A stretch of DNA of 56,076 nucleotides from a virus. Lineage: Duplodnaviria > Caudoviricetes. The notes under the pieces are model-generated. The model made no database searches. It was not told the DNA's origin and saw nothing but the letters and a program-made list of their open reading frames with translations. This document shows positions 29,394 through 47,525 of this stretch, in pieces (positions within the stretch are counted from its first letter, which is position 1; each line of letters starts with the position of its first letter). The stretch covers positions 1-56,076 of IMG/VR virus record IMGVR_UViG_3300034093_001920. The stretch is one strand, 5' to 3'. A program made the translations under genes and the position numbers.

Positions 29394-29617
29394 TGGACAT
29401 GTTTACCGTTTCGCTCAACAACAATCGGGAGTATGTCGTCACAACTACCGAGGCTAGCCTTACGGATGAGGATGTCTTTCACATTCTCCGTCGGATGGTT
29501 TTTGACATGGAACAGAAGCGTTTGGCTAAAGAACTTGCGGGCCAGGTAGCTCCTTCAGAAAGTAACGTCGCTAGTCTTATCCGTAAGCGTTTGTCCGACA
29601 GAAAAACTAATTCATAA
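29393..29617 (+). CDS. Hypothetical protein
   Basis: TAATG coupling. Confidence 0.55.
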   Translation: MDMFTVSLNNNREYVVTTTEASLTDEDVFHILRRMVFDMEQKRLAKELAGQVAPSESNVASLIRKRLSDRKTNS

Positions 29618-29649
29618 CATTTCCACCAGAACAGTGCTAGACTGTACAC

Positions 29650-30555
29650 ATGGTTGGTGAAAGTTACTCTACGTCGTATTTCAGTACGCCGTCAAACTCC
29701 CTTGACCCCACGTTGTTCGAGGGGCGTAACTTGCGTTCGCCTATTCGGCAGGGAATCATGACCCTCATCAACGACTTTTTAGGGCGCAAGTACCGTCACC
29801 CTGAGTTTTGGTCGCACCCGTGGCTCGCTGGCTCTGCTGTATCGTACCAATGGGAAGCCTCTCGGCAACCTGGAGACTTAGATTGTCTCGTAGGTGTCGA
29901 CTTTGTTCAATTCCGTAAGGCTAATCCAGAGTTTGCTGGGCTGTCCGACAACGAGGTCGCGTACGAAATCAACGACGATTTTCGCAATGGGCTTCAGCCA
30001 AAGACTGCTGATTGGAACGGGTTTGAACTTACCTTTTATGTAAACCCAGGTGGGGCAGACATCCGCGACATCAAACCCTACGCCGCATACGATTTAAAAT
30101 ACGATGAATGGACAGTAACTCCTAGCCCGCTGGCTTCTCCCCCCGCCGCCCCTGCTTGGGAAACGTCTGTTAGCGCAGACAAGGCTATGGCGTCGCAGAT
30201 TGTTGCGCGGTATCTAGCGGCTCTCAATTCAGCGCAAATTTCGACATCTGAAGCAACCCGCCGCAACGCAGAGACCAACATGAAGATGTCTATGGAACAG
30301 GCTATCAACATGTTTGAGGACATTCACATGGGTCGCCGCTTGGCGTTCTCTACGGATGGCGAAGGCTATGCAGACTTCCACAACTACCGCTGGCAGGCAG
30401 CAAAGCGTGAGGGAATCATCCAGCAACTTAAGCCAATACGCGATAAGGCTATGGATGTCGCCTCACAGACTGCTCAGGAACTCTACGGAGTTGATTTGCC
30501 CGATACAACTACCCTCATTCGTCGCGCGGCTTTGTACGGAAAGAGACCGCAGTAA
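29650..30555 (+). CDS. Pol-beta-superfamily nucleotidyltransferase
   Basis: hAGS...GDLD...E.TFYV. Leaderless TGcTAGACT-N6-ATG. Confidence 0.75.
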   Translation: MVGESYSTSYFSTPSNSLDPTLFEGRNLRSPIRQGIMTLINDFLGRKYRHPEFWSHPWLAGSAVSYQWEASRQPGDLDCLVGVDFVQFRKANPEFAGLSDNEVAYEINDDFRNGLQPKTADWNGFELTFYVNPGGADIRDIKPYAAYDLKYDEWTVTPSPLASPPAAPAWETSVSADKAMASQIVARYLAALNSAQISTSEATRRNAETNMKMSMEQAINMFEDIHMGRRLAFSTDGEGYADFHNYRWQAAKREGIIQQLKPIRDKAMDVASQTAQELYGVDLPDTTTLIRRAALYGKRPQ

Positions 30556-30571
30556 CGACTAGGCTTACTTC

Positions 30572-31063
30572 ATGCACATACTCGTAGAACTTAACGGCGT
30601 CCTTCGCAATCAAGATGATGCTCCGATTCCTGTCGGACAGATTATGGTTGGAACGCTTAGTGCTTTCCACAAGATTACTATTTTGTCGTTTATGGATGAA
30701 CGCGGAACAAAGCACTGGCTCGACTCCAACAAGATTGTCGACATGGATGACATCATTGACTCATCCGTAGGGCTTACGGACGAACACCTTACGGAGCGAC
30801 AAATCAAACTCGCTCGCAGCCGAGGGGCTGTTGACCTGTTCATTACGGGAGACCCGTCAATGTGGGCTTTTGCTTTTGAGATGGGGATTCCCTCGGTTAT
30901 GATGGGGCAACCGTCTTATCTTCGCCCCGAGTTTCGCCCTGATGCTCCAAAACGCTTGCGGGCATGGAATGACATTGAAGAAGCCATCCGTAAGGAAAAC
31001 ATCAAACGCACTAACGACGCCAGGCTCGTCCGCACAGATGAGGGTTTGAGGTTTGACGGATGA
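30572..31063 (+). CDS. HAD-like protein (degenerate motif I)
   Basis: 'ILVELNGVL' in place of hhhDxDGxL. Leaderless TAGGCT-N6-ATG. Confidence 0.55.
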   Translation: MHILVELNGVLRNQDDAPIPVGQIMVGTLSAFHKITILSFMDERGTKHWLDSNKIVDMDDIIDSSVGLTDEHLTERQIKLARSRGAVDLFITGDPSMWAFAFEMGIPSVMMGQPSYLRPEFRPDAPKRLRAWNDIEEAIRKENIKRTNDARLVRTDEGLRFDG

Positions 31064-32547
31064 TTATCTTTGGTGGAGTAGAGATTCCATCCAACAGGAC
31101 GCTACTTGAACGCTCTGGTGTACAGAATGTTATGCTCAACTACTGGGGTTTGCGTAAACGCGGGCTTCCTAAAACAAAAGCGTATCTAATTGGTGAGCAT
31201 TTCCTTACGGACATGAAAGTCTGGGTCGACTCTGGGTCTACACAGGCTGACAAAGCAACCCTATCGCCGCGCGAATTAGCGGAATACGCAGCCGACTATG
31301 AAGAGTTTATTGCGCTCAACTACGACCGCATTGAGGGCTTTACAGAGTTTGACTCCACATCGCTGGGGATGCCTGCCGTTATTCAGAATCGAGCTGTGTA
31401 TGAGAATGACCCGAAGCTGTGGGTAGTATGGAAAGAGTCTTACGGACAGCCTGTCCTACGGATGTGGGCTAACGAGTACTCCAACATCGCTATCCCCCAT
31501 GAAACAATTGAGTCGGTCACTACTCTGGCTGGGGTGACTCGGGGGCTGGCTCAGACTACTGGGGTTCGCTTCCATGCGCTCGCTACGGCTAAGCCTGATA
31601 ATTTACGCCAGATACCGTTTAGCACCACCAGCACGCTCTCATGGCTCTCTCCAATGCGCCGAGGAGAGACGATTATCTGGGACGGCAACAAGATTGTCCG
31701 TTATCCCAAGAAGATGAAGTCGCAAGCCCGCATTAGATACAAGAGCATTGTCGAAAAGGCTGGGCTGAATTACGAATTGTTTGTGTCGGATGACACCCTA
31801 GAAGCAACAAAGGTTGCTATCTGGTCTTACTTACAGTTAGAGAGAACCATGACAGACAACAATGACAACATTACCCCCATCAACAAGAACAAGTTAGTTG
31901 ACAATAGTGATGACACCCTATACACAGGTTTGATGGAAACAGGGTTGGGGTCTTCTGCTAACAGCGGTGTTGAGATGCGGAAAAAAGAACGGGCTGAGGT
32001 AGTCCAAAGAGACCCGCAAGAGGTAGTTGCTATGCCCGTAGTCGGCTACCAGATGAAAACGATTGTTGATTCGGACGGCTCTCACGATGTGCTCAAAGAT
32101 GTGCCTATCGTACAGTCCACGGCTAGTACTTTACGCCAATGTAATACCTGCTTTGTGGCTTCTAATTGCCCTGCTTTCAAAGAAGATAACACCTGTGCTT
32201 TCAGTCTTCCTATCGAGGTAAAGACTCGTGAACAATTACAGGCTTTGAACACGGCTCTCTTAGAGATGCAGGCTCAGAGAGTAATGTTTATGCGGTTTGC
32301 AGAGGAACTGAACGGTGGCTACGCCGACCCCAATGTGTCGCAAGAGATAGACCGATACCAGAAGATGTTGAAGAACATCAAGGAGTTAGACGAGTCCAAA
32401 GAGTTCATCCAGATTACGGCTCAACGCAACGCAAGTCAGGGCGTGCTTTCCGCTATCTTTGGAGACCGAGCAACGGTACTTCGGGAGATGGAACAGCCTT
32501 TGAATGAAGTCGAGACTACTCAAATCATTCGCGATTCCCTGGAATAA
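31060..32547 (+). CDS. TGT/DpdA-like barrel fused to a Cys-rich C-terminal domain
   Basis: V.VDSG, EFD, V.W, RFHAL, S..SW..R.GE pattern; C-terminal CxxC..C...C. Confidence 0.5.
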   Translation: MIIFGGVEIPSNRTLLERSGVQNVMLNYWGLRKRGLPKTKAYLIGEHFLTDMKVWVDSGSTQADKATLSPRELAEYAADYEEFIALNYDRIEGFTEFDSTSLGMPAVIQNRAVYENDPKLWVVWKESYGQPVLRMWANEYSNIAIPHETIESVTTLAGVTRGLAQTTGVRFHALATAKPDNLRQIPFSTTSTLSWLSPMRRGETIIWDGNKIVRYPKKMKSQARIRYKSIVEKAGLNYELFVSDDTLEATKVAIWSYLQLERTMTDNNDNITPINKNKLVDNSDDTLYTGLMETGLGSSANSGVEMRKKERAEVVQRDPQEVVAMPVVGYQMKTIVDSDGSHDVLKDVPIVQSTASTLRQCNTCFVASNCPAFKEDNTCAFSLPIEVKTREQLQALNTALLEMQAQRVMFMRFAEELNGGYADPNVSQEIDRYQKMLKNIKELDESKEFIQITAQRNASQGVLSAIFGDRATVLREMEQPLNEVETTQIIRDSLE

Positions 32548-32638
32548 CCCGCAGCGAAGTTAGTTGATAAGAGCCTACGGATAGGTTTGAATCCTTACGG
32601 ACAGAAAATCGACAGCCTTACGGATTGAAAAACGGCAT

Positions 32639-32686
32639 AAAAAAACCCCCATGCCATCCCGATTAGGGACAGCATGGGGGTTCTTG
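32639..32686. terminator. Bidirectional intrinsic terminator
   Basis: Stem 32644-32654/32672-32682 with an A-run on the left and TTCTT on the right, between convergent operons. Confidence 0.8.
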
Positions 32687-32708
32687 TATAGCATGAACGG
32701 TTATTTAG

Positions 32709-33077
32709 TTATAGCGAGTAGGGCGTGTTCTTGTTGTATGAGGGTAGTTTTCTTCCAGCCTCACGGATAGAGACCTCACGGATGGCAAGGGCAACCCTCT
32801 CGGATGTTTCTTTGGCTTCCGCAAAGATGCGAAGCCGAGTGTTGGGAGTACGCAACATTGTCTTTCGCTCCTCGGGCGTAGTACCGCCCCAGATGCCCCA
32901 CTTACGCAGGTCAGAGTCAGCCATGGCTGTCTCCAAGCAGTCAAACGCTATCGGGCATCCAGCGCAGATTCTCTTTGCTTTGTCAATTCCCTCGCGGTCG
33001 GTTGGGTCTGGGAAAAACAAGTCAGGGTCGCTGACTATGTTACAAGACGCGAGGTCTTGGTTTTCTGGGGTTAGCAT
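32709..33077 (-). CDS. whiB: WhiB-family transcription factor (second copy)
   Basis: C....PDLFFP...AKRICAGCPI..DC...GIWGGTT..ER. Confidence 0.92.
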   Translation of the reverse strand: MLTPENQDLASCNIVSDPDLFFPDPTDREGIDKAKRICAGCPIAFDCLETAMADSDLRKWGIWGGTTPEERKTMLRTPNTRLRIFAEAKETSERVALAIREVSIREAGRKLPSYNKNTPYSL

Positions 33078-33079
33078 GG

Positions 33080-33289
33080 CTACTCCTTGTATCCGTGTCG
33101 TTTCATTTCGGCTAGGACATTCCGTAGGCTACGGAAGTCCGATGGTGTTGACGGTGCGAACATTACTTCACCGTCAGGGGCAAACATCTTGAAGTGGCAC
33201 TTCTTGGTAAACTCAATCTGCCAACCCTGTTTCTCCGCCTTGGCGAAGAGGATGCGGAGTTCCTTACTGCTTACCTTGGGCTTACTCAT
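33080..33289 (-). CDS. HicA-like protein
   Basis: GW......H.K...PDG......TPSD....N....KR.G. Confidence 0.7.
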   Translation of the reverse strand: MSKPKVSSKELRILFAKAEKQGWQIEFTKKCHFKMFAPDGEVMFAPSTPSDFRSLRNVLAEMKRHGYKE

Positions 33290-33476
33290 ACTCGTCCGAT
33301 GAAACTGCCTCGGCTTCGGCAATCAGAATAGAACTAAACGCTTCGCCCATAGCCTCTTCGACTGTGCTACGGACAATCCGCCATTCGCTGTCGGACAACT
33401 TTCGCCCACCGAGCAGGTCTTCCTCAAACTCCAAACGAGTAAGTTCGTAGTCTAGGCTGAGAGTTTCTTCATCCAT
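33282..33476 (-). CDS. Small acidic protein
   Basis: AAGGAG SD, MDEETL start. Confidence 0.6.
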   Translation of the reverse strand: MDEETLSLDYELTRLEFEEDLLGGRKLSDSEWRIVRSTVEEAMGEAFSSILIAEAEAVSSDEYE

Positions 33477-33487
33477 TGTGTTTCTCC

Positions 33488-33598
33488 TTATTGGTTGATG
33501 AGGATAGTGATGTAAACGAGAGTCGCGAGGTGGGCAAGTACCGCTCCGAAGAACGCTCCCTGCCATCGGGCTTTGGACTTGTAGATGTTTTTAGTCAT
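33488..33598 (-). CDS. 36-aa single-TM peptide (not in ORF track)
   Basis: MTKNIYKSKARWQGAFFGAVLAHLATLVYITILINQ, ATGA coupling. Confidence 0.55.
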   Translation of the reverse strand: MTKNIYKSKARWQGAFFGAVLAHLATLVYITILINQ

Positions 33599-33798
33599 CC
33601 GTCGTATCCGTAAGAGTAGTCTTCGCCTGTGTGTTGATACTCACAAGCGTTACAGATAGTGACTATCGTTGCGTGGTAACGACCCACTACCTCTGTCCAC
33701 ACAGTACAGTACGCCAAGTCTTCACAACTGGGGCACTCCCACTCTGATTCTTCGGACATCCCCTCGTCTGGGGGGTCGATTGGTGCTTGTACACTCAT
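33595..33798 (-). CDS. Zinc-ribbon protein
   Basis: CPSC...CNAC. Confidence 0.6.
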   Translation of the reverse strand: MSVQAPIDPPDEGMSEESEWECPSCEDLAYCTVWTEVVGRYHATIVTICNACEYQHTGEDYSYGYDG

Positions 33799-33926
33799 TG
33801 GTTCTCCTTATGGCAGTCGCACACACATTGTGGCGAGTCGGAATGATACGGCGTTTCGACTGGACATCCCTCATGATGACCAGTCATACACCAACCTGTG
33901 GGAAGTATGCCCCTACTTTTGGACAT
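33795..33926 (-). CDS. Small Cys/His protein
   Basis: GWCMTGHH..C...CVCDCH. Confidence 0.5.
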   Translation of the reverse strand: MSKSRGILPTGWCMTGHHEGCPVETPYHSDSPQCVCDCHKENQ

Positions 33927-34158
33927 CAGCGGTAGTTCCACAGACGAGGCAAGCATCCTCGTAGATAGGGCAGTCCTCTTCGCAGGGTTCACACAACGCC
34001 CAACGGACATCCGACAGTTGTTGTCCGTCACGCTGACGGCTATGGATAAACGCATCCACAGCCCATGTACCAAACCCTTGCGAGATAAGGTAGCACAGGT
34101 CATCGAGGCTTACCTCGTTGCCCTGCTTGTCGTAGATGACATCCATTCCTTGTGCCAT
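33913..34158 (-). CDS. Small zinc-finger protein
   Basis: CEPC...CLVC. Confidence 0.55.
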   Translation of the reverse strand: MAQGMDVIYDKQGNEVSLDDLCYLISQGFGTWAVDAFIHSRQRDGQQLSDVRWALCEPCEEDCPIYEDACLVCGTTADVQK

Positions 34159-34403
34159 TACTGCACCTCTCCCTCAACGATGACCGCGTAGTACAAGTCG
34201 TTTGGGTTGTTTGCCAAGTCAAAGTGACATCCCCACTTTTCGCACATTGACTTTGCGCCAGCGAAAGTCTTGTAATAGTTGTAGTTACGGATAGCGTGAC
34301 TTTCCTGACGGATGATTACGGCACAGAACTTCTTGTCATCGTCCCATCCCGTGAAATCGTTTTCCGTTCCATCCAACTTCTGAACGGTGTATTTGATTGC
34401 CAT
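34158..34403 (-). CDS. Hypothetical protein
   Basis: MAIKY start with GAGGAG SD. Confidence 0.55.
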   Translation of the reverse strand: MAIKYTVQKLDGTENDFTGWDDDKKFCAVIIRQESHAIRNYNYYKTFAGAKSMCEKWGCHFDLANNPNDLYYAVIVEGEVQ

Positions 34404-34405
34404 GT

Positions 34406-34687
34406 TTATCTCCTCTCGTACTGCCACATTACGGCATTACAGTAGTTATGTACAGCCCCCTCGGTCATTCCTGACTCGTGGCTGTGTTGTAGGTGAACTG
34501 GGTAGTCCATGAACTTTGGCGGAAACAAGTTCCAGTTTATGGGCTTATCGGTAATCCGCTTGGGGGCTGTCCAGTCGAGCGTTTCCTCACAGTAGAAACA
34601 CTTGCCCTGTTGGACACGGATGTATTCCTCACGGACAGCCCTGCGCTCTTGCCAAGTGAGCGTGGTGTAATCGACAGGTAGTTCCAT
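34406..34687 (-). CDS. Endonuclease VII-like protein
   Basis: Q.GKCFYC...VHLQHSH..GM..G..H..CN. Confidence 0.6.
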   Translation of the reverse strand: MELPVDYTTLTWQERRAVREEYIRVQQGKCFYCEETLDWTAPKRITDKPINWNLFPPKFMDYPVHLQHSHESGMTEGAVHNYCNAVMWQYERR

Positions 34688-34760
34688 TACTCTGTCTCCA
34701 TGTCGCAGAAGTAACAGGATGTTCCTTCTCCGTAACATTCGTCTGTCATCTCGTGCATGG

Positions 34761-34952
34761 TTACTTCTCTTCCAGGATTGAGTAGGTTGCGGTTGTCGCA
34801 TCGTCTCCGATGTAGTACAACTCAATGTAGTCTTCGACCGCGAGTCGTGCGAGGCTCTCACTCTCTGCCTCAACAGCGTACTCGAAGTCATCCGACAGGG
34901 GATACCACCCCTCGGGATACTGGATGTGTACTTGCGCTGTCCAGTTACTCAC
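34761..34952 (-). CDS. Small acidic protein, VEAxS family
   Basis: VEAESESLA. Confidence 0.55.
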   Translation of the reverse strand: MSNWTAQVHIQYPEGWYPLSDDFEYAVEAESESLARLAVEDYIELYYIGDDATTATYSILEEK

Positions 34953-35188
34953 AGGCGGATGCCCAGTCTTTCGGCTGTCTTCGCCAAGTCCAGATTGTTT
35001 CCGCCCTGCTTGGCAACCATGTCAATCAGCCACGACCGTTCATCGAGGCAAGACTGGTGCGCCCAGATGTTGTCATCTTCCATAAAGAAAGTTTCGACAT
35101 CAGCACTACCGTCATCAAGTTCTCCGAACTCGTAACCGCAGATGTCGCACCATTCTTCTTCGGGCTTGCGTTGGATTTTCTTAGTCAT
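34949..35188 (-). CDS. Small zinc-binding protein
   Basis: CDIC...H..C, AGGAG SD. Confidence 0.55.
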   Translation of the reverse strand: MTKKIQRKPEEEWCDICGYEFGELDDGSADVETFFMEDDNIWAHQSCLDERSWLIDMVAKQGGNNLDLAKTAERLGIRL

Positions 35189-35196
35189 TAGTTCTC

Positions 35197-35364
35197 CTAG
35201 TCTTCGTAAGGGTCGGCGTAGTCAACGGTAAACTCTCCACCATCGTGGCTGAACTCGGACATCTCGCAGTTGCGAGCGATGTCGAGGGCATCATCTCGGT
35301 CTTCCGCCTCGACCAACATAGTGTAGTTCTTGATTTCACTTGCGGTGATAAGCCACTTGCTCAT
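35197..35364 (-). CDS. 55-aa acidic protein, VEAxS family (not in ORF track)
   Basis: MSKWLIT...VEAEDRDDALDIA. Confidence 0.6.
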   Translation of the reverse strand: MSKWLITASEIKNYTMLVEAEDRDDALDIARNCEMSEFSHDGGEFTVDYADPYED

Positions 35365-35528
35365 TTGGTCTCCTCAACATCAAAGTCCCACTTGTGGGTT
35401 CTGGCGTACTGGTCAAAGTCATCGGCAATCCAGCCGTCAAGGCTCTCGTGAGCCTCTTGTGCGCTGTCTGCCTCGACCTCAATCTCGTACAGGCTTGTTC
35501 GGGTCGCGGTGATAAGGTACTTGGTCAT
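35361..35528 (-). CDS. 55-aa acidic protein, VEAxS family (not in ORF track)
   Basis: MTKYLIT...VEADSAQEA. Confidence 0.6.
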   Translation of the reverse strand: MTKYLITATRTSLYEIEVEADSAQEAHESLDGWIADDFDQYARTHKWDFDVEETK

Positions 35529-35737
35529 TCGTCTTTCTCCTCTTCCTCGGGGCGGATGTCAATGGTCTCGTAGTGCCGACCCTCGGTGGTGAGCGATACA
35601 ACACCCTCGATGTCGTGAGCCTCACCGATGTAGGCAATAGCCTCGTCGGCAAGCATCACGGCATCGCTTTTGCTGGGGGCAGTCACAACAACAGTATGTT
35701 CGACTACCTCTTGTACGACAATGGTGTAATCGGTCAT
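35525..35737 (-). CDS. Small acidic protein, VEAxS family
   Basis: MTDYTIV...VTAPSKSDA. Confidence 0.55.
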   Translation of the reverse strand: MTDYTIVVQEVVEHTVVVTAPSKSDAVMLADEAIAYIGEAHDIEGVVSLTTEGRHYETIDIRPEEEEKDE

Positions 35738-35910
35738 TCCATGTCCTCCTTTATCTCGTCTTCGGTCTCAAAGGGAATCAAACGGCTGTTCTCCAACCGC
35801 TTGTTCAGGATGATGACGATGTTGCCGTCAGACTCCTCGTCAATCATGTAGTGCGGTGCGTATTTAGCCACCTCGGTGAGCAGGTCGCTCAATAATGGTT
35901 GCTTGTCCAT
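35734..35910 (-). CDS. Hypothetical protein
   Basis: MDKQPLL start, coupled. Confidence 0.5.
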   Translation of the reverse strand: MDKQPLLSDLLTEVAKYAPHYMIDEESDGNIVIILNKRLENSRLIPFETEDEIKEDME

Positions 35911-36044
35911 TAGAACCTTTCTTCCAACGCGCTGGCGTTGGGGTTGTCGTAGTAGAACTTCATTACACAGGTGTCGCACAAGTCAAAGATGTGACTGTGG
36001 ATAGTTGCCCCACAATCGGGGCATTGGTAGTGCTCGGTCAGCAT
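35910..36044 (-). CDS. 44-aa zinc-ribbon peptide (not in ORF track)
   Basis: CPDC...CDTC, AAGGAG SD. Confidence 0.5.
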   Translation of the reverse strand: MLTEHYQCPDCGATIHSHIFDLCDTCVMKFYYDNPNASALEERF

Positions 36045-36052
36045 GACACTCC

Positions 36053-36325
36053 TTACGGACGGGCTATGGATAAGTTCGTCCGTAAGACAGGGATGCTCGC
36101 CGCCGACATTCTCACGCTTGCTTCGAGCATGATACTTGCTACGGATACTCGAAGTACATCAGCAATCGACTCAATAATCTCTTCCGATGTGGATGTGACT
36201 CCGCGCTCGGTGTCGGAGATAGTGGCGATAGAGATGTACCCAAAGTTAGATACATCCGTGAGGGTCAATCCGTGAGACTGTCTAATCTCACGGATGACCT
36301 GTCCTACATAGTCGCGGAACTTCAC
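36053..36325 (-). CDS. XRE/Cro-like HTH regulator
   Basis: G..IREIR...GLTL.DVS....IS..TISD.ERG. Confidence 0.85.
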   Translation of the reverse strand: MKFRDYVGQVIREIRQSHGLTLTDVSNFGYISIATISDTERGVTSTSEEIIESIADVLRVSVASIMLEASVRMSAASIPVLRTNLSIARP

Positions 36326-36453
36326 TTGTTTTCCTCGAACTCGCGCTGTTGCTGTTCGAGGTTTGCCTGACCCATGGCGGTGATGAGGTCGGTCAGCGAA
36401 CCAATCGACTTGTCAAACTCACCCCATGAGTCGAACTTGATTTCTATGGTCAT
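36322..36453 (-). CDS. Small hypothetical protein
   Basis: MTIEIKF start. Confidence 0.45.
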   Translation of the reverse strand: MTIEIKFDSWGEFDKSIGSLTDLITAMGQANLEQQQREFEENK

Positions 36454-36463
36454 GTTATTCCCC

Positions 36464-36958
36464 TTATTTTGTCCAGATGTAATCGTACTGCGTAGGTGCG
36501 ACACCGTTGTCTTCTTCCCAGTCAAACTGACTATACCACTCGTACTTCTTAGTGAGCAGAGCGACACGGTGTGATGATGCGAGGGCATCGTAGATAGGCT
36601 CGTACATCCAGTCTGGCAGGTCGGCAGTACCGTTCTCCCAGACCAAGCCAAGGTCAATGGCGCGGTCGTAGGTTGCCATAGCCTTGTCAGCGATAGTGGA
36701 CTTGTATCCACGGCGTTTCCACTCAACGACCATTTCTACAATGTAGTTGAGCAGACCCGACTCGTGCCCTCGCCACATCTTGACGGCAGGATGATTGACC
36801 CAGCCCTTGGGCTGACGGTGGTTGCCAGCAGGGTCTAGTTCGAGCAGGGTCATCATAATCTGCCAACCCTCTAACGCCTGCTTGTTGAGGCGTTGGTTGT
36901 CCAGCACACGAGCGACCTCTGCGAAGTCGTGCGTGGCATACGGCAGGAATGTCTGAAT
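36464..36958 (-). CDS. Pyrimidine-dimer DNA glycosylase (MSMEG_6728/DenV-like), ATT start
   Basis: (I)QTFLPY...LD..RL.KQ..E..QI...GW.NHPA.KMW.G. Confidence 0.85.
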   Translation of the reverse strand: MQTFLPYATHDFAEVARVLDNQRLNKQALEGWQIMMTLLELDPAGNHRQPKGWVNHPAVKMWRGHESGLLNYIVEMVVEWKRRGYKSTIADKAMATYDRAIDLGLVWENGTADLPDWMYEPIYDALASSHRVALLTKKYEWYSQFDWEEDNGVAPTQYDYIWTK

Positions 36959-40035: not shown

Positions 40036-40044
40036 GGTGTTCTC

Positions 40045-40152
40045 CTAGTAGGACTGGTGGATAGCGACAAGCAGGTTACGGATAGCAGGAACAAGTCCGA
40101 AGTGCTTACGGACAACGCGGAAATCGCGAATGGCTTTGCGGATGTCTAGCAT
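40045..40152 (-). CDS. 35-aa basic peptide downstream of the ncRNA
   Basis: AAGGAG-N6-ATG, MLDIRKAIRDFRVVRKHF... Confidence 0.5.
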   Translation of the reverse strand: MLDIRKAIRDFRVVRKHFGLVPAIRNLLVAIHQSY

Positions 40153-40185
40153 GGGCATCTCCTTATGGATGTCTAACGGATAGAA

Positions 40186-40660
40186 TGGGGAGACAAGTTT
40201 GTGTCGGTCTCCCCAACGACAGCCCAGTTTCTCAATACCATGTGGCAGGGCACACTCCCCTCGTTGATACTTCGGAGAGGCAAACACTTCTACCACGCGA
40301 CCGAGGGGCGTACCCACCGCATCTCCTAGACTGCTCTACAACATCTCCCATAGGGCAAACAGCCCAACCCCTATGGCGTATCCTGTGTTATTCCGACACC
40401 ACACCCCACAGGCAAGGTATGGTGAAGTTGTCGATGCGGATTCGGAATCCTTGCTTGGAGTTTCTCGTACTCCCGAGGCGTTACGACTTCGCCCGATGCT
40501 GTCGGACACGGATGTCCGACAGAATAATGTGAGCAGTTGTTTCGACATACTCGGGTCGCTCCTCGGTGGCAATCGCTTGTTCTAAATAATGGCACTCAAC
40601 CTGAACAAGCGAACCACCGAGGAGTGGTGTTGAGTGAGGTCAGTTTTCCGCCGTGACCTA
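40186..40660 (-). ncRNA. Large structured non-coding RNA candidate (~480 nt)
   Basis: About 10 stems plus several loop and long-range complements in the only long gap of a tightly packed operon. G-U pairs favour the minus strand. Confidence 0.7.
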
Positions 40661-40667
40661 GGGGGTT

Positions 40668-41324
40668 CTAGCGCGCATCCAACTGCGCGTACATCTTCTC
40701 GACCAGTTCCTCGAACAACTTGTAGTCGAGGGAGACACTACCCGAGAGTGTGGGGTCTGCCTTGGTGCGCTGTTCATCGAGCCAGCGGTGGCTGTCCTGT
40801 CGGATGTGGATGTTTATCTCTCGGTCAGCAGGGTCGAACTTCCGACCGAGGAGACCCTCTACGGTGTCACGGACACTCGTAGTGCGAGACTCTGCCTCAC
40901 GCCGACCACGCTCTTCTGCCTCTTGGATGATTGAGCGTGTGCGCGCATCTTCCGCATCTTGGTCTTCTTTTGCCTTGGCGTAGTCATCCCACAACTTCTG
41001 GGTCGTGGTGTCGTACACTCCGAGAATGGTCTGACCGTCAACGAGGGTCTTGACCTTTTCGACCGAGCCGTCTTGCTTTGTCATCGTGGTCGTGATGTAG
41101 TACCGCTTGGTGCGCGACTTGGGGTCAGTCGGTGTCCAGAGGCTACTGGCATCCGACATGGCGCGCCAGTACAGCCCTGACCAATGAGGCTTTTGGAAGT
41201 TGGCGTGAGATTCGAGGACAGCGATGACCGAGTTGGTCATGTTGGCTCGGTGTAGTTCGCTGGCGCGCTCGGATACAACAATCTTCGAGCCGACTGGGAT
41301 TGCGAGGACTTCTGCGTGTTTCAT
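40668..41324 (-). CDS. Hypothetical protein (directly upstream of the ncRNA)
   Basis: AAGGAG SD, 218 aa. Confidence 0.65.
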   Translation of the reverse strand: MKHAEVLAIPVGSKIVVSERASELHRANMTNSVIAVLESHANFQKPHWSGLYWRAMSDASSLWTPTDPKSRTKRYYITTTMTKQDGSVEKVKTLVDGQTILGVYDTTTQKLWDDYAKAKEDQDAEDARTRSIIQEAEERGRREAESRTTSVRDTVEGLLGRKFDPADREINIHIRQDSHRWLDEQRTKADPTLSGSVSLDYKLFEELVEKMYAQLDAR

Positions 41325-41369
41325 GGTTTGGTTCTCCTTATGGATAGTTGAGGTGTTGCTTACGGACGG

Positions 41370-41888
41370 TTAGACGATGCGACAATGCGTGAGGATAGTC
41401 GAGGTCGAGCCTCGGAAGTCATCGACTCCCTTGACCTTACCCACTATTGTAACCTCGTCACCCACGGCGAGGTCGTTCACCCAGTCGCGTGTCGTGAATG
41501 TCTTGACTCGGTGCTTGTCGTTGATGAAGACGAGCAGGGTTGTTCCACCAAAGCCCGAGTAGATGTCGCGCTTGGAGTCGAGCCGACCTGTGAACCGAGC
41601 CTTGTCACCAACGCTTACGGACAGAGCCGTCAGAGTATCCGACAGGGCACGCTGGGCATTGAGATACGGTGTCGCGATGTTGCGGATGCGGTCGATGAGG
41701 AATGATGCTCCCGATGAGTTGATGCCGTCAAGAGTGTCATCCTCGATGCCAACTGCTTGGACGAGTTTGAGTGCGTACCCCAACTGCTTGTCCGATGCTG
41801 GGTAGCGCGAGGACATGGTGCGTGCCGTGGCAAGAGTCTCACGGACAGCCTCGATGTCGGCATTGGTGAGGAGTTCGGTATCAGTCAT
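41370..41888 (-). CDS. Protein with C-terminal OB-fold-like domain
   Basis: 'ASDKQL' motif; VGDK..F.G...GDEVTI.GKVK...Y/F.G...T.LT. Confidence 0.55.
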   Translation of the reverse strand: MTDTELLTNADIEAVRETLATARTMSSRYPASDKQLGYALKLVQAVGIEDDTLDGINSSGASFLIDRIRNIATPYLNAQRALSDTLTALSVSVGDKARFTGRLDSKRDIYSGFGGTTLLVFINDKHRVKTFTTRDWVNDLAVGDEVTIVGKVKGVDDFRGSTSTILTHCRIV

Positions 41889-42023
41889 GAGTTTGACCCC
41901 CTAGTGTGGTAAAGCAGTCGTGGCAAAGGATGTCGAAGTTTAGATACCCAGTACGAGTCCACTCCGAGCCACCCCATTCGGGAATGGTAAGTTGCGTACA
42001 GCGTTCGCAGGTTTCGAGTTCAG

Positions 42024-42248
42024 TCATGATTGGTCTCCTACGAAGTTGAGCAGAGGGGTGATGTTCCCCTCGCGGTCTAGGGCGAGTTCGATGTTGTCGC
42101 GGATAACGCTACGACCGTTGGCAAGAAGAATCTCGATAACGATTTCACGGAATCGCTCGGCGGTAGGCGTGTACCCCTTGCCGTATCCCTCACCTACTTC
42201 ATAGGCAAGAGCATCGAGAGCGAGGTTGTTGGTGAGTTCTTTGGACAT
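42024..42248 (-). CDS. Hypothetical protein
   Basis: MSKELTNN start, AGGAG SD. Confidence 0.55.
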   Translation of the reverse strand: MSKELTNNLALDALAYEVGEGYGKGYTPTAERFREIVIEILLANGRSVIRDNIELALDREGNITPLLNFVGDQS

Positions 42249-42268
42249 GATTGTTCTCCTGATGTTTG

Positions 42269-42303
42269 TGTCGGACAGCCTCACGGATAGAGGCTGTCCG
42301 ACA
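42269..42303. repeat. 14-bp perfect inverted repeat built from CGGACAG motifs
   Basis: TGTCGGACAGCCTC-N7-GAGGCTGTCCGACA. Confidence 0.85.
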
Positions 42304-42309
42304 GGGTGA

Positions 42310-44196
42310 TTAGTTTGCGAGGTTGCGGGCTGTCGCGGTTGCGACCAACTCGCGACCGAGAGCGATGATGCCTCGGACTTCGCTGATGTCGGCAACGAAC
42401 TCGAATCCGTGGTCGTTGTCGATGCGGTAGCCTGTGTTGAGATTGACGAGACCTGTAAGGACTCCGCCGAGGCGCAGGTCACTCGCAATCTTGTCGCACT
42501 TATCTTCGCTCTCCCATTGACCGTCCGTAATCGTAAGCATGACCTTGATTGCTCGGGTCGAGTCAGCGAGGATGCCTTGTGCTTTGGAGAGACCAACGAG
42601 AGGTTCAGTACCACCGCTGTGGTGGCTGTGTCGCATCTGACTGGTCGCGCTGTCACCCGAGCCGTAGAGGACTTCCGAGTCCGAGGCAAAGGTGATGACA
42701 GTCGTGCTGGCGTTCACCGTGTCGAGTGCGCGCTTGACCGCCCACATCGCCTCGAACGCCTCACGGCGAACACCGCTCATTGAGCCAGAGACATCCAGCA
42801 GGACAACACACTCGATGTCCACAGCATCCTCACGACCAACCTCGAATCGGTCGAACGCGGTGTCGAAGTCCTTGTCTGCCAGCCAGCGACCAAGGTTGAC
42901 CTTGCCAGACGAGACCTGCCTGTTCCAGCCAGAGTCGTGCTTGGCTTGGAGTTCTTCGAGGACTCGGGCAAAGCCGTTGGATGCTTGTGCCGTCTCGGGA
43001 GTGACCGACTCCATGTCGTAAGTTGCCTTACGGATGTTCTGGTCGACTCCGTTGAGGGGGTTCTCCATGCCGTTGATAGCGTTGGCATCGTTGATGATGT
43101 CTTCCCGAGCCTCGTTCACAACCTTGTCGAGAGCATCGCGGAGAGTGTCGACAATCGACTCGCCAGTTCCAGCACCCTGACCGTCAGAGGGCTGGTCATC
43201 GTCCGAGTCATCGTTCGACTGTGGAGCAGGGTTGCTCGGTGACGGCGACTTGTTTGTGCTGGGCGTGCTGTCGGATGAATCGTCCGTAGGCTGTCCGTTA
43301 GAACCGCCCGACTCTTCATCCCCGTCCGAATCCGAGTCGCTCGGAGCAGGGTTGCTCGGAGCAGGTTCGGGTGGAGCAGGGTTGCTCGGGAACTGTGGCT
43401 CGGGCTGGTTGCTCGGCGCACGCTCGGAATCCTTGGACTGTTCGGACTGGGGTACAGGTCGAACCGACCCCGACTCCTGTGACGAGCCACCCTTACATCC
43501 ACCCTCGGGCGGAGTGAACTGATTGAGCAGGTGGTAGAACTCTTCGAGCAGAGCCTCGCCTCGGTCGTTGTCCTTGGGGAAGACGAGAAGACGGTACTCG
43601 TCAATCACTCGGGCAAGGTCGGGCATGAGTTCGGGTCGAGCGAACTTGTCGGCAACTGCCTGTCGGACATCCAACGGCAGGTACTTGCGACCATGAGTCA
43701 GGATGAACGCTCCCGATACATCGTCCTGTCCGAGAATCAGAGTGAGGACGGTTGGGGTGAGCCAGAGTCGTGCCGACTTGCCCCAGCGACCAGTCGCGAG
43801 AGTCTCGATGCGCTGGTCTTCGAGGATGTTGAGTTCGCGAGTGTAGCCGTTGTCGATTGCGAACTTGGTGATGCCAGCACCCTTGCGAGGCGTGTACAGG
43901 ATGTGGAGCATCTCGTGGACGGACAGACCCTTGTTGGATGCGATGTCCGACAGGCTGTCGAATGAGAGCGACTCGGAGTCGAACCAGATTTGCGTGGGAA
44001 TCGACCAAGCAGGGGCAGGTGCTTTGCCCGAGGCGCGAACATCGTGGAGCGTGACCTTGATTGGAGACCAAGTGTCGAGCGACTGCTTGACCACGGTGTT
44101 GATGAACTTACGGCTGTGTTCGATGAACCGAGCCTTGCGCTCGGCATCGGGGTCGACAGCCGACAATGGGCTGGACTGGAAGTTGGGGGTAGACAT
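42310..44196 (-). CDS. vWA-domain protein with N-terminal HExxH domain (CobT-like)
   Basis: HEMLH...N.LED.RIE, acidic/Pro linker with SNPAP repeats, MIDAS DVSGSM, GGT, ITDG. Confidence 0.88.
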   Translation of the reverse strand: MSTPNFQSSPLSAVDPDAERKARFIEHSRKFINTVVKQSLDTWSPIKVTLHDVRASGKAPAPAWSIPTQIWFDSESLSFDSLSDIASNKGLSVHEMLHILYTPRKGAGITKFAIDNGYTRELNILEDQRIETLATGRWGKSARLWLTPTVLTLILGQDDVSGAFILTHGRKYLPLDVRQAVADKFARPELMPDLARVIDEYRLLVFPKDNDRGEALLEEFYHLLNQFTPPEGGCKGGSSQESGSVRPVPQSEQSKDSERAPSNQPEPQFPSNPAPPEPAPSNPAPSDSDSDGDEESGGSNGQPTDDSSDSTPSTNKSPSPSNPAPQSNDDSDDDQPSDGQGAGTGESIVDTLRDALDKVVNEAREDIINDANAINGMENPLNGVDQNIRKATYDMESVTPETAQASNGFARVLEELQAKHDSGWNRQVSSGKVNLGRWLADKDFDTAFDRFEVGREDAVDIECVVLLDVSGSMSGVRREAFEAMWAVKRALDTVNASTTVITFASDSEVLYGSGDSATSQMRHSHHSGGTEPLVGLSKAQGILADSTRAIKVMLTITDGQWESEDKCDKIASDLRLGGVLTGLVNLNTGYRIDNDHGFEFVADISEVRGIIALGRELVATATARNLAN

Positions 44197-44245
44197 GGTG
44201 TGAACCTTTCGGGTTGGGATGATGTGGGGTTGTTTGTGCTGGGAT

Positions 44246-44279
44246 GACGGCTGACGGACACCCCTATCCGTCAGCCGTC
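44246..44279. repeat. 13-bp perfect inverted repeat between the AAA and vWA genes
   Basis: GACGGCTGACGGA-N8-TCCGTCAGCCGTC. Confidence 0.8.
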
Positions 44280-44291
44280 CGTAAGCCTCGG

Positions 44292-45596
44292 TTAGACCGA
44301 GGCTGTGAACGCGATGCCCAACTCGCCACAGATGTTCGAGGCGTTGAGGTCGAGCGTGTTGGCGATGCCACCACGGTCTGGAACTTTCATCGAGTTCAGG
44401 AGAGAGTGTCGTGCGAACTCCCAGCCCAACTCCGTGTTGCTCACGAAGTCTTTGAGTACTCGGGTCGAGAAGATAGAACTGAACTCGCCCAACTCGTACT
44501 GGTCGCGGATTGCGAACGCGACATCCAACAGCGACTTGCTGGGGATGAACTTGGACTCGATGTCGCGGTCATAGGTGAACTCGACCTTGATGCCGTAGCG
44601 GTCGAGGAACGCCTCGTCTGGCTGTGCGACTCCCTTGTAGTTCCAGTTGCCGTCAGCGATAATGAGGCACTCGGGGTGAATCTTGATGACCTGCCCCTTG
44701 TCTCGGGTCATGCGAATCTCGCGCTCCATGAGAACAGCGAGGAAGTACGAGTTCGCCTTGGGAGACATACGAGTTGCCTCGTTGATGAGGACAACGGACG
44801 GCTGTTGGATAGCATCCACCAGCGCGCTGTTGCGCCACTCGAAGTGCCCCTCGGCAGTCGGTATGAGTTCGCCCTGAATCTGCCCCTCGTCCATGCTCGG
44901 GTCACAGTTGACCGTTGCGAACGGCACGCCACGGCGCGATGCCTGACGGCGCGCGCTGGTCGACTTGCCAGTTCCAGCGTGACCGCCGACCCAGACATTC
45001 CGTTGCTCACGGAGTGCCTTGTCGAAGAACGCATCCTCGGGTGTGCCAGCCACGACTCGTGGAATGTAGCCAGCGATGTCGGGGTCAGTCGGCAACGGAT
45101 AGAGCAGAGTCGAGTAGGCGTGAACCAACTCGGGCTGTCGGACAGGCTGTACGACAGGCGGTGCGACCTGTACGACAGGCGCGACTGGTTCGACTGGGAC
45201 AGGCGGAGCGACAGCGACAGGTGGAGCGATGTTTGTGCTGGGCGCACCTTGTCCGTTGTACACGGAATCGAAGACAGGCTCGACAGGCGTGCTTGTCATC
45301 GTGGTGTCAGCGCGAACCTTGCGCTCGATGCTTTGGAGCAGGGTGGCTGGTTTCTCGCCAGCCTTGACCTGCTCGATGTTGTTGTCGGTCAGGGTGACGG
45401 TCAGCGGTGTGCCGACCAACATCTCGCCCATGTCGAATGTTGGGATGTCGAAGTTCCACGCGGTGTGGACTCCTTGACCTGCGCCGTTGTGTCGGGTGTA
45501 CACAATCGGGTCTCCGTTCGAGTCGTGAATCACGACTGTCTGTCGGATAGGGCTGTCGTATGAGGTACGACTCTGGATGATGCTTGCGGTGTTCAT
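44292..45596 (-). CDS. MoxR/CbbQ/CobS-type AAA+ ATPase
   Basis: GHAGTGKS, LINEA, N..Y.G...DEAFLDRY, STR. ATG 45596 with AAGGAG SD. Confidence 0.88.
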   Translation of the reverse strand: MNTASIIQSRTSYDSPIRQTVVIHDSNGDPIVYTRHNGAGQGVHTAWNFDIPTFDMGEMLVGTPLTVTLTDNNIEQVKAGEKPATLLQSIERKVRADTTMTSTPVEPVFDSVYNGQGAPSTNIAPPVAVAPPVPVEPVAPVVQVAPPVVQPVRQPELVHAYSTLLYPLPTDPDIAGYIPRVVAGTPEDAFFDKALREQRNVWVGGHAGTGKSTSARRQASRRGVPFATVNCDPSMDEGQIQGELIPTAEGHFEWRNSALVDAIQQPSVVLINEATRMSPKANSYFLAVLMEREIRMTRDKGQVIKIHPECLIIADGNWNYKGVAQPDEAFLDRYGIKVEFTYDRDIESKFIPSKSLLDVAFAIRDQYELGEFSSIFSTRVLKDFVSNTELGWEFARHSLLNSMKVPDRGGIANTLDLNASNICGELGIAFTASV

Positions 45597-45630
45597 GTTG
45601 CTCTCCTTGGTTGGGGTTACTTGGTTGGGG

Positions 45631-45861
45631 TTACTGCTTGGGCAGGGGGTGAGAATCGGTGAGTCGGGCGGTGAGGTCATCGCCCCAGAACATGGTGTCG
45701 AGGTTGTACACCGTGTCGGACAGAACGACCAGTCGCTCACGGACAACATCGCTGTTGCGAGTCGTGAGGTCGAATATCTTGGCTCTGCGGTTCAGGTAAA
45801 CATTGACGAGTTCATCCCGAACAATTCGGGCTGTCTTGCGGTCAAGGGTGATGTCGGTCAT
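45631..45861 (-). CDS. Hypothetical protein
   Basis: AAGGAG SD. Confidence 0.6.
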   Translation of the reverse strand: MTDITLDRKTARIVRDELVNVYLNRRAKIFDLTTRNSDVVRERLVVLSDTVYNLDTMFWGDDLTARLTDSHPLPKQ

Positions 45862-45891
45862 GAGTTGGTCTCCTTGGTCTGTCGGACGGAA

Positions 45892-46254
45892 TCAGATGCG
45901 CGCCATGCGTGCGAGTCGCTTGGCATCCGTAGGGCTGGTCTCGTTGAGTCGGACGAGGTAGTTGTGAACCGTCTCGCGAGGCAGGTTGCGAAGAATCCGA
46001 CCGACCAGAGTGCTGGTGGTCTGACTACGCGACCATGAGAGCAGGTGGGTAATCGTCATGGTGTCGAGGTCGAGTTCGAGGATGTCGGTCGACCAATGCG
46101 TGATGCCGTAGGTCGGGCGTGACTCGTTGGTCTCCATGTCGTACTTGTTCCAGCGAGTCGCGACAATCGTGTCGTTGTAGTTGTGGAACGAGGCGAGGTC
46201 GGCAACGAGCGAGTCAATCTTGTAGTTGGGGATGCGGTTGTTGGTCATGGTCAT
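45892..46254 (-). CDS. Hypothetical protein
   Basis: AAGGAG SD, 'SQTTS' motif. Confidence 0.6.
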   Translation of the reverse strand: MTMTNNRIPNYKIDSLVADLASFHNYNDTIVATRWNKYDMETNESRPTYGITHWSTDILELDLDTMTITHLLSWSRSQTTSTLVGRILRNLPRETVHNYLVRLNETSPTDAKRLARMARI

Positions 46255-46267
46255 GGTCTCCTTGGGG

Positions 46268-46417
46268 TTAGAGGATTGCGTTGATGTCATCGGACATCGC
46301 TCGGCTGGCGAACTCGTTGAGGTGAGTCTCGCAGAGCGAATCGTGGAACTGGACGATGAAGACATCGCCAGAGCAGGTGTTGGGCTGACGGTCGGCGTGA
46401 ACGCAGGTCGGGGTCAT
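46268..46417 (-). CDS. 49-aa Cys/His peptide (not in ORF track)
   Basis: ATGA coupling, MTPTCVH...LCETH. Confidence 0.45.
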   Translation of the reverse strand: MTPTCVHADRQPNTCSGDVFIVQFHDSLCETHLNEFASRAMSDDINAIL

Positions 46418-46704
46418 GCTTGCGCCTCGACCGTCTGGCGTGCCTTGGCAATCGCATCGAAGATGATGCGCTTGCGCGCTCCCTTGGGCATCGACTGGTA
46501 GAAGTCGAAGTCGACTGTTTCGAGAGACTCGGCAATTCGGTTCACCAGTCCGTAAGCGGTGAAGAGGACTTCTTCCTCGTCCTTGGTGAAGTGCCAGTAA
46601 TCGCCACCGACTACGGCAGACGGCGAGAGTTCGAGGTGCGTGGAGAAGAGGTACGCGATGATGCGTGCGTACTCTTCGCGACTTGGGGTCAGGTCAATCA
46701 TCAT
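46414..46704 (-). CDS. First gene of the leftward operon, hypothetical
   Basis: AAGGAG SD. Confidence 0.6.
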   Translation of the reverse strand: MMIDLTPSREEYARIIAYLFSTHLELSPSAVVGGDYWHFTKDEEEVLFTAYGLVNRIAESLETVDFDFYQSMPKGARKRIIFDAIAKARQTVEAQA

Positions 46705-46731
46705 GGGTCGGTCTCCTTGGGGTAGAGGAAT

Positions 46732-46936
46732 GGGGAGCGCACGATGCGCCCCCCAACAGATACAACAATACGCCTACGCCCCAACCACGATGACGATAGG
46801 TCGAAACTAATTCGAGGAGTTTCAGACCGACCAATCGAGGCGAGGCGAGACGAGAATCGGGGAGCGCGTATTGTCGCGCCCCCCAACAAAGACAACTTTA
46901 CGCCTACGCCCCAAGCAGGATGACGATAGGTCGAAA
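46732..46936 (-). repeat. Two ~75-bp direct repeats (promoter + GC hairpin), 130-bp period
   Basis: 46732-46806 compared with 46859-46936. Confidence 0.85.
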
Positions 46937-47131
46937 TTGCCCAAGAAATAATGTTTACCTGAAATCGCCCCTATCGTCATCGTAGATGGGGTCGTATGGT
47001 AGGGCGGGGGTTCGAGGGGGCGGCAGCCCCCTTATACCACAACACCCCAACTAGGATGACGATAGAGAGAAAGAGAATAAGAGAGAGAGGGAGAGAATAG
47101 TACACCCCGACCCCAACTAGGATGACGATAG
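46779..47131. promoter_or_regulatory. Five copies of a 21-bp motif, CCCCAWNNANGATGACGATAG
   Basis: At 46779, 46909, 47045, 47111 and inverted at 46971. -10-like hexamers sit 8 nt downstream. Confidence 0.8.
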
Positions 47132-47525
47132 CCCCAAACTGTTACCTGATAGTAACATTCGACCTGTACCGTAGACCTGGGGTCACCAGCGACCGTCTGA
47201 GCCGATTTAGCCACAGTAGCCATAATTAGTCACCTCGACCGCGTTAGCCCGTCAGACAGGCGCGTACGGTCTTACGGACGGTCTGTCCGACAGCCCCCAC
47301 CCGTTACCGCAACCCGCGAGATGGCCCCCCAGGTCAGACGCCCAGGTAACGATGGTCATCCTAGGCAGTAGCCAAGGTGGCCCGTGTAAGCCATTGAGCG
47401 CCCCTGCAGCAAGGCCAAGGTGTCAGTTGGCGTAGAGAGAGTGTATACCCCCGCCAAGGACGCCAGAGGAGGGCTGAGGGCCTTTTAGAGGGTTATCCTA
47501 AGGTCGCCCCTGCTATCCTGAAGAC

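Follow-up and report, generated by a model that had tools for sequence, protein, structure and literature searches.

A dense, regionally confined array of a short asymmetric DNA word in a lake-water phage record, with candidate proteins that may read it

The stoperators of the cluster A mycobacteriophages (L5 gp71 and Bxb1 gp69 with their operator and stoperator sites) measure about 13 bp and are mostly intergenic. They are described as asymmetric sites, present in 20-30 copies per genome, spread genome-wide and oriented with transcription, and related phages are reported to possess distinct consensus sites with cognate repressors (PMC6550527); a monomeric repressor acting on an asymmetric site is also known (PMC6550527, PMC9283540). 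A second kind of short phage word is the target of DpdA proteins, for which the motifs reported in CAjan (GA/GGC) and iggy (GA) are described as genome-wide and not enriched (PMC7544227, PMC10484667). Here we describe an array of a short asymmetric word in the IMG/VR virus record IMGVR_UViG_3300034093_001920 (Duplodnaviria; Caudoviricetes), which originates from lake-water metagenomes and was analysed over its full 56,076 bp (hereafter the window). The word, CTTACGGA and its close variants, is concentrated in a motif-dense domain (29459-47293), whereas a related lineage possesses a comparable array built from another word. No account of this array was found in the literature on DpdA motifs, on Streptomyces phage BRock and deazaguanine, or on stoperators; among the text matches listed for the four 8-mers, all are primers or oligonucleotides, which says nothing on whether the word has been published.

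The word, its excess and its confinement

The exact word CTTACGGA occurs 30 times over both strands of the record, where approximately 1.5 copies are expected, with 24 copies at 29459-47278, six earlier (9888, 10144, 10175, 20694, 21353 and 24526) and none beyond 47278. None of 100 dinucleotide-preserving shuffles reached this number (mean 1.51, maximum 4). Among 463 NNNNCGGA words, the variants CTGTCGGA, CTCACGGA and CCTACGGA account for 26, 12 and nine copies respectively, the first of these against an order-1 expectation of 2.4. Alignment of the sites yields an asymmetric 10-bp word, (B)CT-N-W-CGGA-Y-R, with flanks that are otherwise unrelated; the C, T, CGGA and A of this word were imposed by the search pattern and the site collection, and are hence fixed, while at the unconstrained flanking positions the base at -1 is never A and that at +9 is A or G in 66 of 69 sites. 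The CT-class consensus CTNWCGGAY has 73 copies in the record, and a position weight matrix scan returned 69 sites against a mean of 3.4 in 50 Markov-1 simulations, a comparison that is partly circular as the matrix was seeded from the sites. The word is not part of any longer repeat or mobile element.

Codon usage does not account for this excess. When synonymous codons were shuffled inside every called gene, leaving protein and codon usage intact, CTTACGGA had a mean of 8.35 and a maximum of 14 copies (n=300), and when codon order was shuffled a mean of 7.04 and a maximum of 12, against the 30 observed; for CTNWCGGAY the 73 observed copies compare with 27.9 and 22.1, respectively. Both codon nulls are inflated, and thus conservative, because intergenic copies were kept unshuffled and some of the crude gene calls are wrong. 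Both strands carry sites, which are found in each of the three frames and in sense as well as antisense orientation. The word AGGCTAT from the same region is an example of a coding artefact, with all 12 copies on the sense strand and reading K-A-M or K-A-I, and the main word behaves otherwise. The array is statistically robust and, at about 25-fold over expectation, unusually strong. The counts of exact sites given by a first-pass annotation of this DNA (24, six and none) were reproduced precisely, the variants it called frequent are real, and its statements that the sites fall on both strands, in different frames and also between genes, and that codon use is no explanation for them, hold under these shuffles.

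The copies are strongly confined within the record. The 31.8% of its length between 29.4 and 47.3 kb holds 24 of the 30 CTTACGGA sites (binomial p 7.6e-8) and 58 of the 73 CTNWCGGAY sites (binomial p 9e-17), equivalent to approximately 3.2 per kb in the motif-dense domain and 0.39 per kb elsewhere. There are no CTNWCGGAY copies at 1-8 kb or 48-56 kb, and the 15 sparse outlying copies (8844-24815, in the 8-28 kb stretch) sit in a rightward replication and recombination operon. The regional excess proposed previously is thus borne out, and a uniform distribution contradicted, within a 56,076-bp record that probably represents an incomplete genome, missing the structural module, of a freshwater actinophage resembling Borockvirus, since 80 Pfam queries (79 distinct window open reading frames, ORFs) gave no match to a capsid, portal, terminase or tail-sheath protein and complete relatives measure 91-95 kb. 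Uniformity over the true whole genome can therefore not be judged from this record. The GC content is 0.55-0.59 at 40-48 kb, a GC-richer segment that partially overlaps the domain.

Arrangement of the sites and their turnover among relatives

Most of the domain is a leftward array of about 35 mostly small genes (32709-47223, minus strand) containing 48 CT-class sites, 30 on the plus and 18 on the minus strand; the rightward part has seven plus and three minus, and the array is hence not polar, unlike cluster A stoperators, as the annotation had remarked. Of 56 sites in the leftward gene array, 12 fall between genes, in a stretch with 13.3% intergenic DNA, and 79% are intragenic. Although most sites are single, adjacent pairs at 9-32 bp are in clear excess (23, against a null mean of 5.9 and maximum of 14 in 5000 random placements), comprising 10 convergent, 10 same-strand and three divergent pairs with start-to-start spacings of mostly 14-16 or 22-26 bp. 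Five convergent pairs (47271, 44251, 42280, 40499 and 43268) have 9-bp arms and 5-7-bp spacers. The densest cluster consists of six same-strand sites (32574, 32594, 32617, 32760, 32775 and 32797; 32574-32805, plus strand) flanking the convergent operon junction, at which a bidirectional terminator-like hairpin is found (32637-32689; 24-nt arms, 83% complementary, 5 nt apart). Other groups are a convergent pair at 37863-37895 (24-25 bp start to start), another at 40499-40522 (15 bp) and a convergent intergenic pair at 42280-42304, which precedes the start of a leftward gene by 32-48 bp. The AAA_5 and VWA genes are separated by DNA with three sites (44251-44285), and the last pair, convergent, is found at 47271-47293, in a divergent non-coding stretch of 300 bp (47224-47525) that marks the boundary of the array.

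Megablast searches of window positions 1-25000 and 29000-48000 against public phage records returned no close relative, and the nearest public proteins for the PolA and tRNA-guanine transglycosylase (TGT)-like genes belong to the Streptomyces phage BRock group (31-37% identity). Our comparison set consisted of 20 IMG/VR loci that encode the TGT-like protein at 48-73% identity. The window word is not enriched in these loci, nine of which contain one or two copies of CTTACGGA. In conserved genes the window sites are lineage-specific gains, the word being absent from all 12-20 aligned relatives at nine of 11 sites, and some gains were created by an amino-acid change, such as LTD in the window where relatives have LVD, LAG, LPE or FPG. 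The closest relative is L132, a 9.3-kb (9294 bp) metagenome contig that is 83.3% identical to window 21172-30373 over 8716 aligned columns and carries 13 copies of CTNWCGGAY, where approximately 1.1 are expected on uniform base frequencies. Six of the seven window CT-class sites are intact in L132, compared to 27% of aligned 9-mers (binomial p 0.002); the outlying sites at 21563, 24044, 24525 and 24808 are among those conserved, and L132 has seven CT-class sites without counterpart in the window. Conservation combined with new sites is the pattern expected where density outweighs exact position, and comparison of the two sequences indicates that the word is conserved and single sites are constrained, with positions turning over while density is kept. 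Among 40 of 52 listed strain differences from the lake none lies inside a site, which is uninformative as only about 1.4 would be expected there.

A second, more distant lineage has an array of a different word, GTACARC. In the complete genome G001 (94.5 kb) this word occurs 71 times, against 28 for its backwards control, with 40 copies within 52.7-73.4 kb, and in locus L002 of this relative there are 40 copies against a synonymous-shuffle mean of 15.6 (maximum 27, n=300). These occupy either strand and every frame, and show mild pairing (6 vs 2.1, p 0.014). Strong arrays were seen in two lineages only, the window with L132 (CTNWCGGAY) and L002 with L003 (GTACARC). Enriched words in three other loci were rejected as arrays: GATAACTAA in L019 is a stop/ribosome-binding site (RBS)/start junction, AAAGCCTTA in L017 an in-frame coding repeat, and ACGAGT in L007 is strand-biased. 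Junctions between L019 genes (14801-21230) repeatedly contain the form GGATAACTAA(T)CATG on one strand; it couples stop, RBS and start and can pass for an enriched motif, so that k-mer scans call for care. BRock has a weak excess of CCTTACGG (7 vs 0.5) as well as TTGACA-type promoters. A search of viral_contigs for inverted word pairs gave at least 107 loci, and among the matches listed none was array-like, the best being a 3.5-kb locus with 1.4 sites per kb, nor was any a close homologue. L002 also encodes a tyrosine integrase directly after the TGT-like gene (11941-13194, minus strand; equivalent to G001 63945-65198), and part of the Borockvirus-like freshwater group may on this basis be temperate.

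The conservation in L132 and the second array bear on the view that the array is functionless, either a by-product of local mutation or gene conversion or the composition of a recently acquired segment. Its partial coincidence with the GC-richer segment would fit that view, the function of the array is unproven, and most of the 20 relatives lack a clear array. However, the excess survives dinucleotide, codon-order and synonymous nulls, the flanks are unrelated and free of any longer repeat, conservation in L132 exceeds background while new sites arise, preferred pair spacings are not expected from mutation bias, and a second lineage evolved an array with another word, so that we consider this explanation improbable.

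The paired sites invite a different explanation, in which the words are cleavage, nicking or recombination sites, such as T5- or tf-type single-strand interruptions or tyrosine recombinase core-type sites. The five convergent pairs resemble recombinase core sites in their architecture; phage nick sites with a lineage-specific consensus exist, and the integrase of L002 lies beside the TGT-like gene. On the other hand, about 60 sites are far too numerous for recombination, most are unpaired, and the lake contigs from four runs have no recurrent joints at the sites. Neither a nickase nor an integrase was found in the window (the latter among the 80 Pfam queries), and its HNH gene (20773-21405) is common to only L001 of the 20 relatives. 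We regard this as the least probable of the explanations, and very improbable in itself. The HNH protein, an endonuclease with a small zinc-finger motif that is matched at 53% by the pattern-scan locus L071, is likely encoded by a mobile homing-type gene.

Candidate readers, a candidate writer and the genome arm

Because the word is asymmetric, maintained as DNA, present in pairs and restricted to one domain, and because a related lineage uses another in its place, we infer, with roughly even confidence, that a fast-evolving DNA-binding protein, encoded by the phage and specific for this sequence, binds at the sites of the array; we can put forward candidates only for this protein. Selection holds on to the word at the DNA level whatever the reading frame, strand or gene. 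One protomer would read one word and cooperate with its neighbours, chiefly at convergent or same-strand pairs spaced by approximately 14-16 or 22-26 bp. In this way a single domain, made up of the small-gene (presumed early) arm and the 3' end of the operon converging on it, would become densely loaded, and the likely purpose would be domain-wide control of this arm, that is silencing or shut-off of the small genes, or protection of the DNA. A lysogeny-type silencing role in the group is conceivable since L002 encodes its tyrosine integrase beside the TGT-like gene. The annotation had proposed a dense array of protein-binding or modification sites on one genome segment; that the array is dense and not driven by coding stands, and conservation above background and pairing are as sites of either kind would show, which leaves the choice between the two to be weighed below.

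Two proteins are candidate readers. The first, which the annotation had also named, is a 90-aa XRE-family helix-turn-helix (HTH) protein (36053-36325, minus strand; HTH_3, E 4.6e-9) with homologues at 29-34% identity in two of the 20 relatives. Five sites lie in and around its own gene (36052-36295), including a convergent pair at the gene 3' end (36052/36079) and three CTCACGGAT copies at 36254-36295, within its first 70 nt or so. Its lineage specificity and these sites keep it a candidate. The second is a lineage-specific 505-aa orphan with a Lys/Ala/Pro-rich N-terminal tail (27055-28572, plus strand), encoded in a variable slot directly upstream of the dense domain. The orphan has no match in the 20 relatives, five homologues in a large protein collection and an 85% identical counterpart in L132; its AlphaFold2 (AF2) model has a predicted local distance difference test (pLDDT) score below 50 for residues 1-122 and about 65-90 for a helical part at approximately 227-502, and searches gave no Pfam or PHROG match, no usable Atlas match and no fold match at E <=0.001. 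Its tail is of the same kind as those reported to confer DNA binding on mycobacterial HupB and Ku (PMC5676037, PMC2932737, PMC3553676). Scans of viral_contigs with the XRE protein, the VWA protein, the orphan and the orphan alignment returned no relative. The variable slot itself (27043-28836) follows a conserved 70-aa gene and has equivalents in L001, L002, L005, L007 and L010, where the insert differs from lineage to lineage: L005 and L007 encode basic low-complexity proteins there, whereas the inserts of L002 and L010 are zinc-ribbon membrane proteins.

The two other binders suggested by the annotation fared less well. SpoVS (22048-22335) is a poor determinant of specificity because it is 73-80% identical in the 15 relatives with a match, none of which is enriched in the word, and for ParB-like proteins there is only a ParB_N match that stays below threshold (E 0.0067; 16.9 bits, with the cutoff at 26.3), in a 113-aa ORF at 55055-55396.

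Several observations weigh against the binding-site reading. With just 12 of 56 sites intergenic, most are not classical operators; the sites have no consistent placement relative to gene starts, and sigma-70-like promoters are not in excess in the region (11 found vs 11.6 expected at 29000-48500 in a promoter/terminator scan). The dense domain of G001 does not coincide with the small-gene arm, so that early-arm control is no clean fit, and 18 of the 20 related loci have no strong array, their top words being RBS junctions, coding repeats or weak. A 10-bp footprint appears long for the single HTH of a 90-aa XRE protein, and the co-occurrence of orphan and word, seen in two close genomes only, amounts to one phylogenetic event. 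Finally, a TGT-fold gene lies inside both arrays and keeps the modification alternative alive.

That alternative is the main rival, and holds that the words are DpdA-type base-exchange targets at which the TGT-fold protein would swap one CGGA guanine for a 7-deazaguanine, giving a regional epigenetic mark that protects or labels the arm. The candidate writer is the 495-aa product of the last gene of the rightward operon (31060-32547, plus strand), a full-length member of phrog_887 (E 5.8e-55) whose AF2 N-terminal domain (pLDDT about 85) is a modelled TIM barrel with tRNA-guanine transglycosylases as its top Foldseek matches (E 4e-6, target-normalised template modelling score 0.48, 13% identity). 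No match to the protein was found in Pfam TGT or among PDB sequences, and its alignment had no relative in genome_contigs; on the strength of the phrog_887 membership and the model, the TGT fold assignment appears reasonable. The gene lies inside the dense domain of the window and near the domain centre in G001, and the window and L002 orthologues are 70% identical, which leaves room for a change in specificity. The word has an invariant GGA, and the known phage DpdA motifs include GA (PMC10484667, PMC7544227). The 73 sites correspond to 0.25% of the G+C positions of the record, the same order as the low insertion rates given for the bDpdA and DpdA2 subfamilies, 0.1% or less of Gs (PMC10516641). 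However, modification targets need no enrichment, pairing or regional confinement, the DpdA motifs described are just 2-3 nt long (PMC7544227, PMC10484667), and 18 of 20 relatives with a TGT-like gene show no strong array. The 80 Pfam queries also gave no FolE, QueC, QueD or QueE match, a weak objection as the record is a fragment and the host could supply preQ0. Taken together, we hold this explanation to be rather unlikely, but if a TGT-fold enzyme does write at these words, it would be the first long, regionally targeted DpdA motif. The conserved neighbour of the TGT-like gene (29650-30555, equivalent to BRock gp39) has no Pfam match and is grouped by the ESM Atlas with phage nucleotidyltransferase-like proteins, which is a lead only.

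The reader or writer could also belong to a broader scheme, which we consider speculative and unlikely, whereby each lineage marks an approximately 18-20-kb domain with a private, rewritten word and a dedicated reader or writer acts on that domain alone, as a macrodomain or self-marking device for timing or protecting the arm expressed first. The arm would be coated on cell entry by an early protein or one carried in the virion, for example the 505-aa orphan, or, alternatively, the TGT-fold enzyme would install a regional 7-deazaguanine mark.

Rightward genes (1-32.5 kb, plus strand) encode an O-like initiator, DnaB, a primase, an SNF2 helicase, PolA, a UvsX-like recombinase, SpoVS and, last, the TGT-fold protein, and window 16-32.5 kb is collinear with BRock gp80 to gp36. 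The opposing leftward array encodes WhiB (32709-33077; Pfam E 1.9e-16), a DenV-like glycosylase (36464-36856), an Api92-like protein (38252-38923), the VWA protein (42310-44196) and the AAA_5 protein (44292-45596), all on the minus strand, and the presence of WhiB is indicative of an actinobacterial host. From 47.5 kb onwards the genes are once more rightward (plus strand; NlpC/P60, Arr-like, ribonucleotide reductase small subunit and GNAT). Two smaller observations concern these genes: a second WhiB-like gene (17634-18020) was recognised by tblastn similarity alone to the BRock WhiB-like gp68 region, and the ORF at 52349-52711 has a weak match to rifampin ADP-ribosyltransferase (Arr-ms, E 8e-5, just under the Pfam cutoff).

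In BRock, genes at both ends point inward and the small-gene arm past the TGT-like gene ends at the left physical end of the genome, which is reported to have a 221-bp terminal repeat (PMC7453282). In the window the array stops at a divergent non-coding region (47.2-47.5 kb) which, by this synteny, looks like a joined terminus of the BRock kind. Lake sequences from the four runs, which as contigs do not record molecule ends, strand or modification, bridge the region and show no place at which many molecules begin or end. The dense domain of G001 has its centre near the convergent junction and ends about 6 kb before the equivalent divergent switch (79.3 kb). The suggestion in the annotation that the dense arm is the first DNA to enter the cell is only plausible: synteny with BRock favours a terminal arm, whereas the G001 domain falls 6 kb short of the boundary.

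A terminal position also has a bearing on the possibility that the words are read by a host factor, as a Chi-like nuclease attenuator, an uptake-type signal or sites for a nucleoid protein, concentrated at the exposed entering end. Words read by hosts (Chi, DNA uptake and uptake signal sequences) occur in all frames, the dense arm is syntenic with that at the left physical end of BRock, and relatives with another word could have other hosts. Chi-type recognition, however, needs a strand polarity that the array lacks, and the G001 domain stops before the presumed terminus. Furthermore, CTTACGGA reaches at most about 0.04 per kb in 151 sampled Actinomycetota genomes, at or below random and mostly below its backwards control, in a sample that includes the unpublished genomes G127, G008, G055, G025, G155, G089 and G095 and may not contain the true host. 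A host-factor word is accordingly unlikely in our view, indeed decidedly so.

Two further features lie near the presumed terminus. Just inside the right edge of the array, at 46746-47140, there is a separate repeat family in which a 22-50-nt unit, reading CTATCGTCATCNTNNTTGGGG on the minus strand, is present four times in direct orientation and once inverted, with copies spaced by 130, 136 and 66 bp and two of them followed by a GC-rich hairpin; these repeats could be iterons, promoters or a packaging signal. The segment 46928-47591 has a summed contig depth about 10-fold above neighbouring bins in three of the four lake runs (126, 120 and 121 vs about 12) and 17.4 vs about 5 in the fourth, with loose ends at 47064-47102. 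Because of this raised depth it seems to be shared with far more abundant organisms; it was not found in the relatives G001, G003, G004, G005 and G006 and has no Rfam match. Searching the full window with Rfam at its gathering threshold gave no match, and neither did a relaxed Rfam search (E up to 1) of 46600-47700 or a tRNA scan.

Few regulatory features can be recognised straight from the genome of an uncultured phage, and arrays of private words are one of them. Should a cognate reader be found, this case would be a tractable example of how protein-DNA specificity co-evolves in freshwater actinophages, a group with largely uncultured hosts.

Comparison with known systems

Chi and DNA uptake sequences are 8-10-mers that represent a genome-wide host property, occur in all frames and sometimes form inverted pairs. 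The array described here shares with them a large excess, occurrence in all frames and some inverted pairs, but its word is confined to part of a phage genome, is non-polar and is not over-represented in the 151 sampled Actinomycetota genomes. The families MatP/matS, Noc/NBS, SlmA/SBS and RacA/ram belong to bacterial chromosomes and have mostly palindromic 13-16-bp sites at a far lower density. They resemble the array in using a domain-confined, orientation-independent word that is tolerated inside genes, which in their case has one dedicated reader that organises the domain; here no homologue of such a reader was found beyond the sub-threshold ParB_N match, and where ParB/parS or Noc/NBS sites are palindromes of 14-16 bp, the window word is asymmetric. 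Phage DpdA systems are similar in that a gene for a protein modelled with a TGT fold is present together with a word containing an invariant GGA, and differ in that no 7-deazaguanine synthesis genes were found here by the 80 Pfam queries of a fragment record.

The cluster A stoperators come closest among known systems, sharing with the array an actinophage setting, dozens of copies of a short asymmetric word in transcribed DNA and distinct consensus words among related phages (CTNWCGGAY in the window and L132, GTACARC in L002 and L003). No immunity repressor or integrase was found in this record, although an XRE protein is present. The differences are that about 60 sites are packed here at about 3 per kb within 18 kb, on both strands and often in pairs, and that they are neither oriented with transcription nor spread genome-wide. 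Because transcription orientation and genome-wide spread are lacking, we regard the array as a variant of the stoperator theme and not a member of it, and if a cognate reader were found, the stoperator idea would be extended to a non-polar, domain-wide mode.

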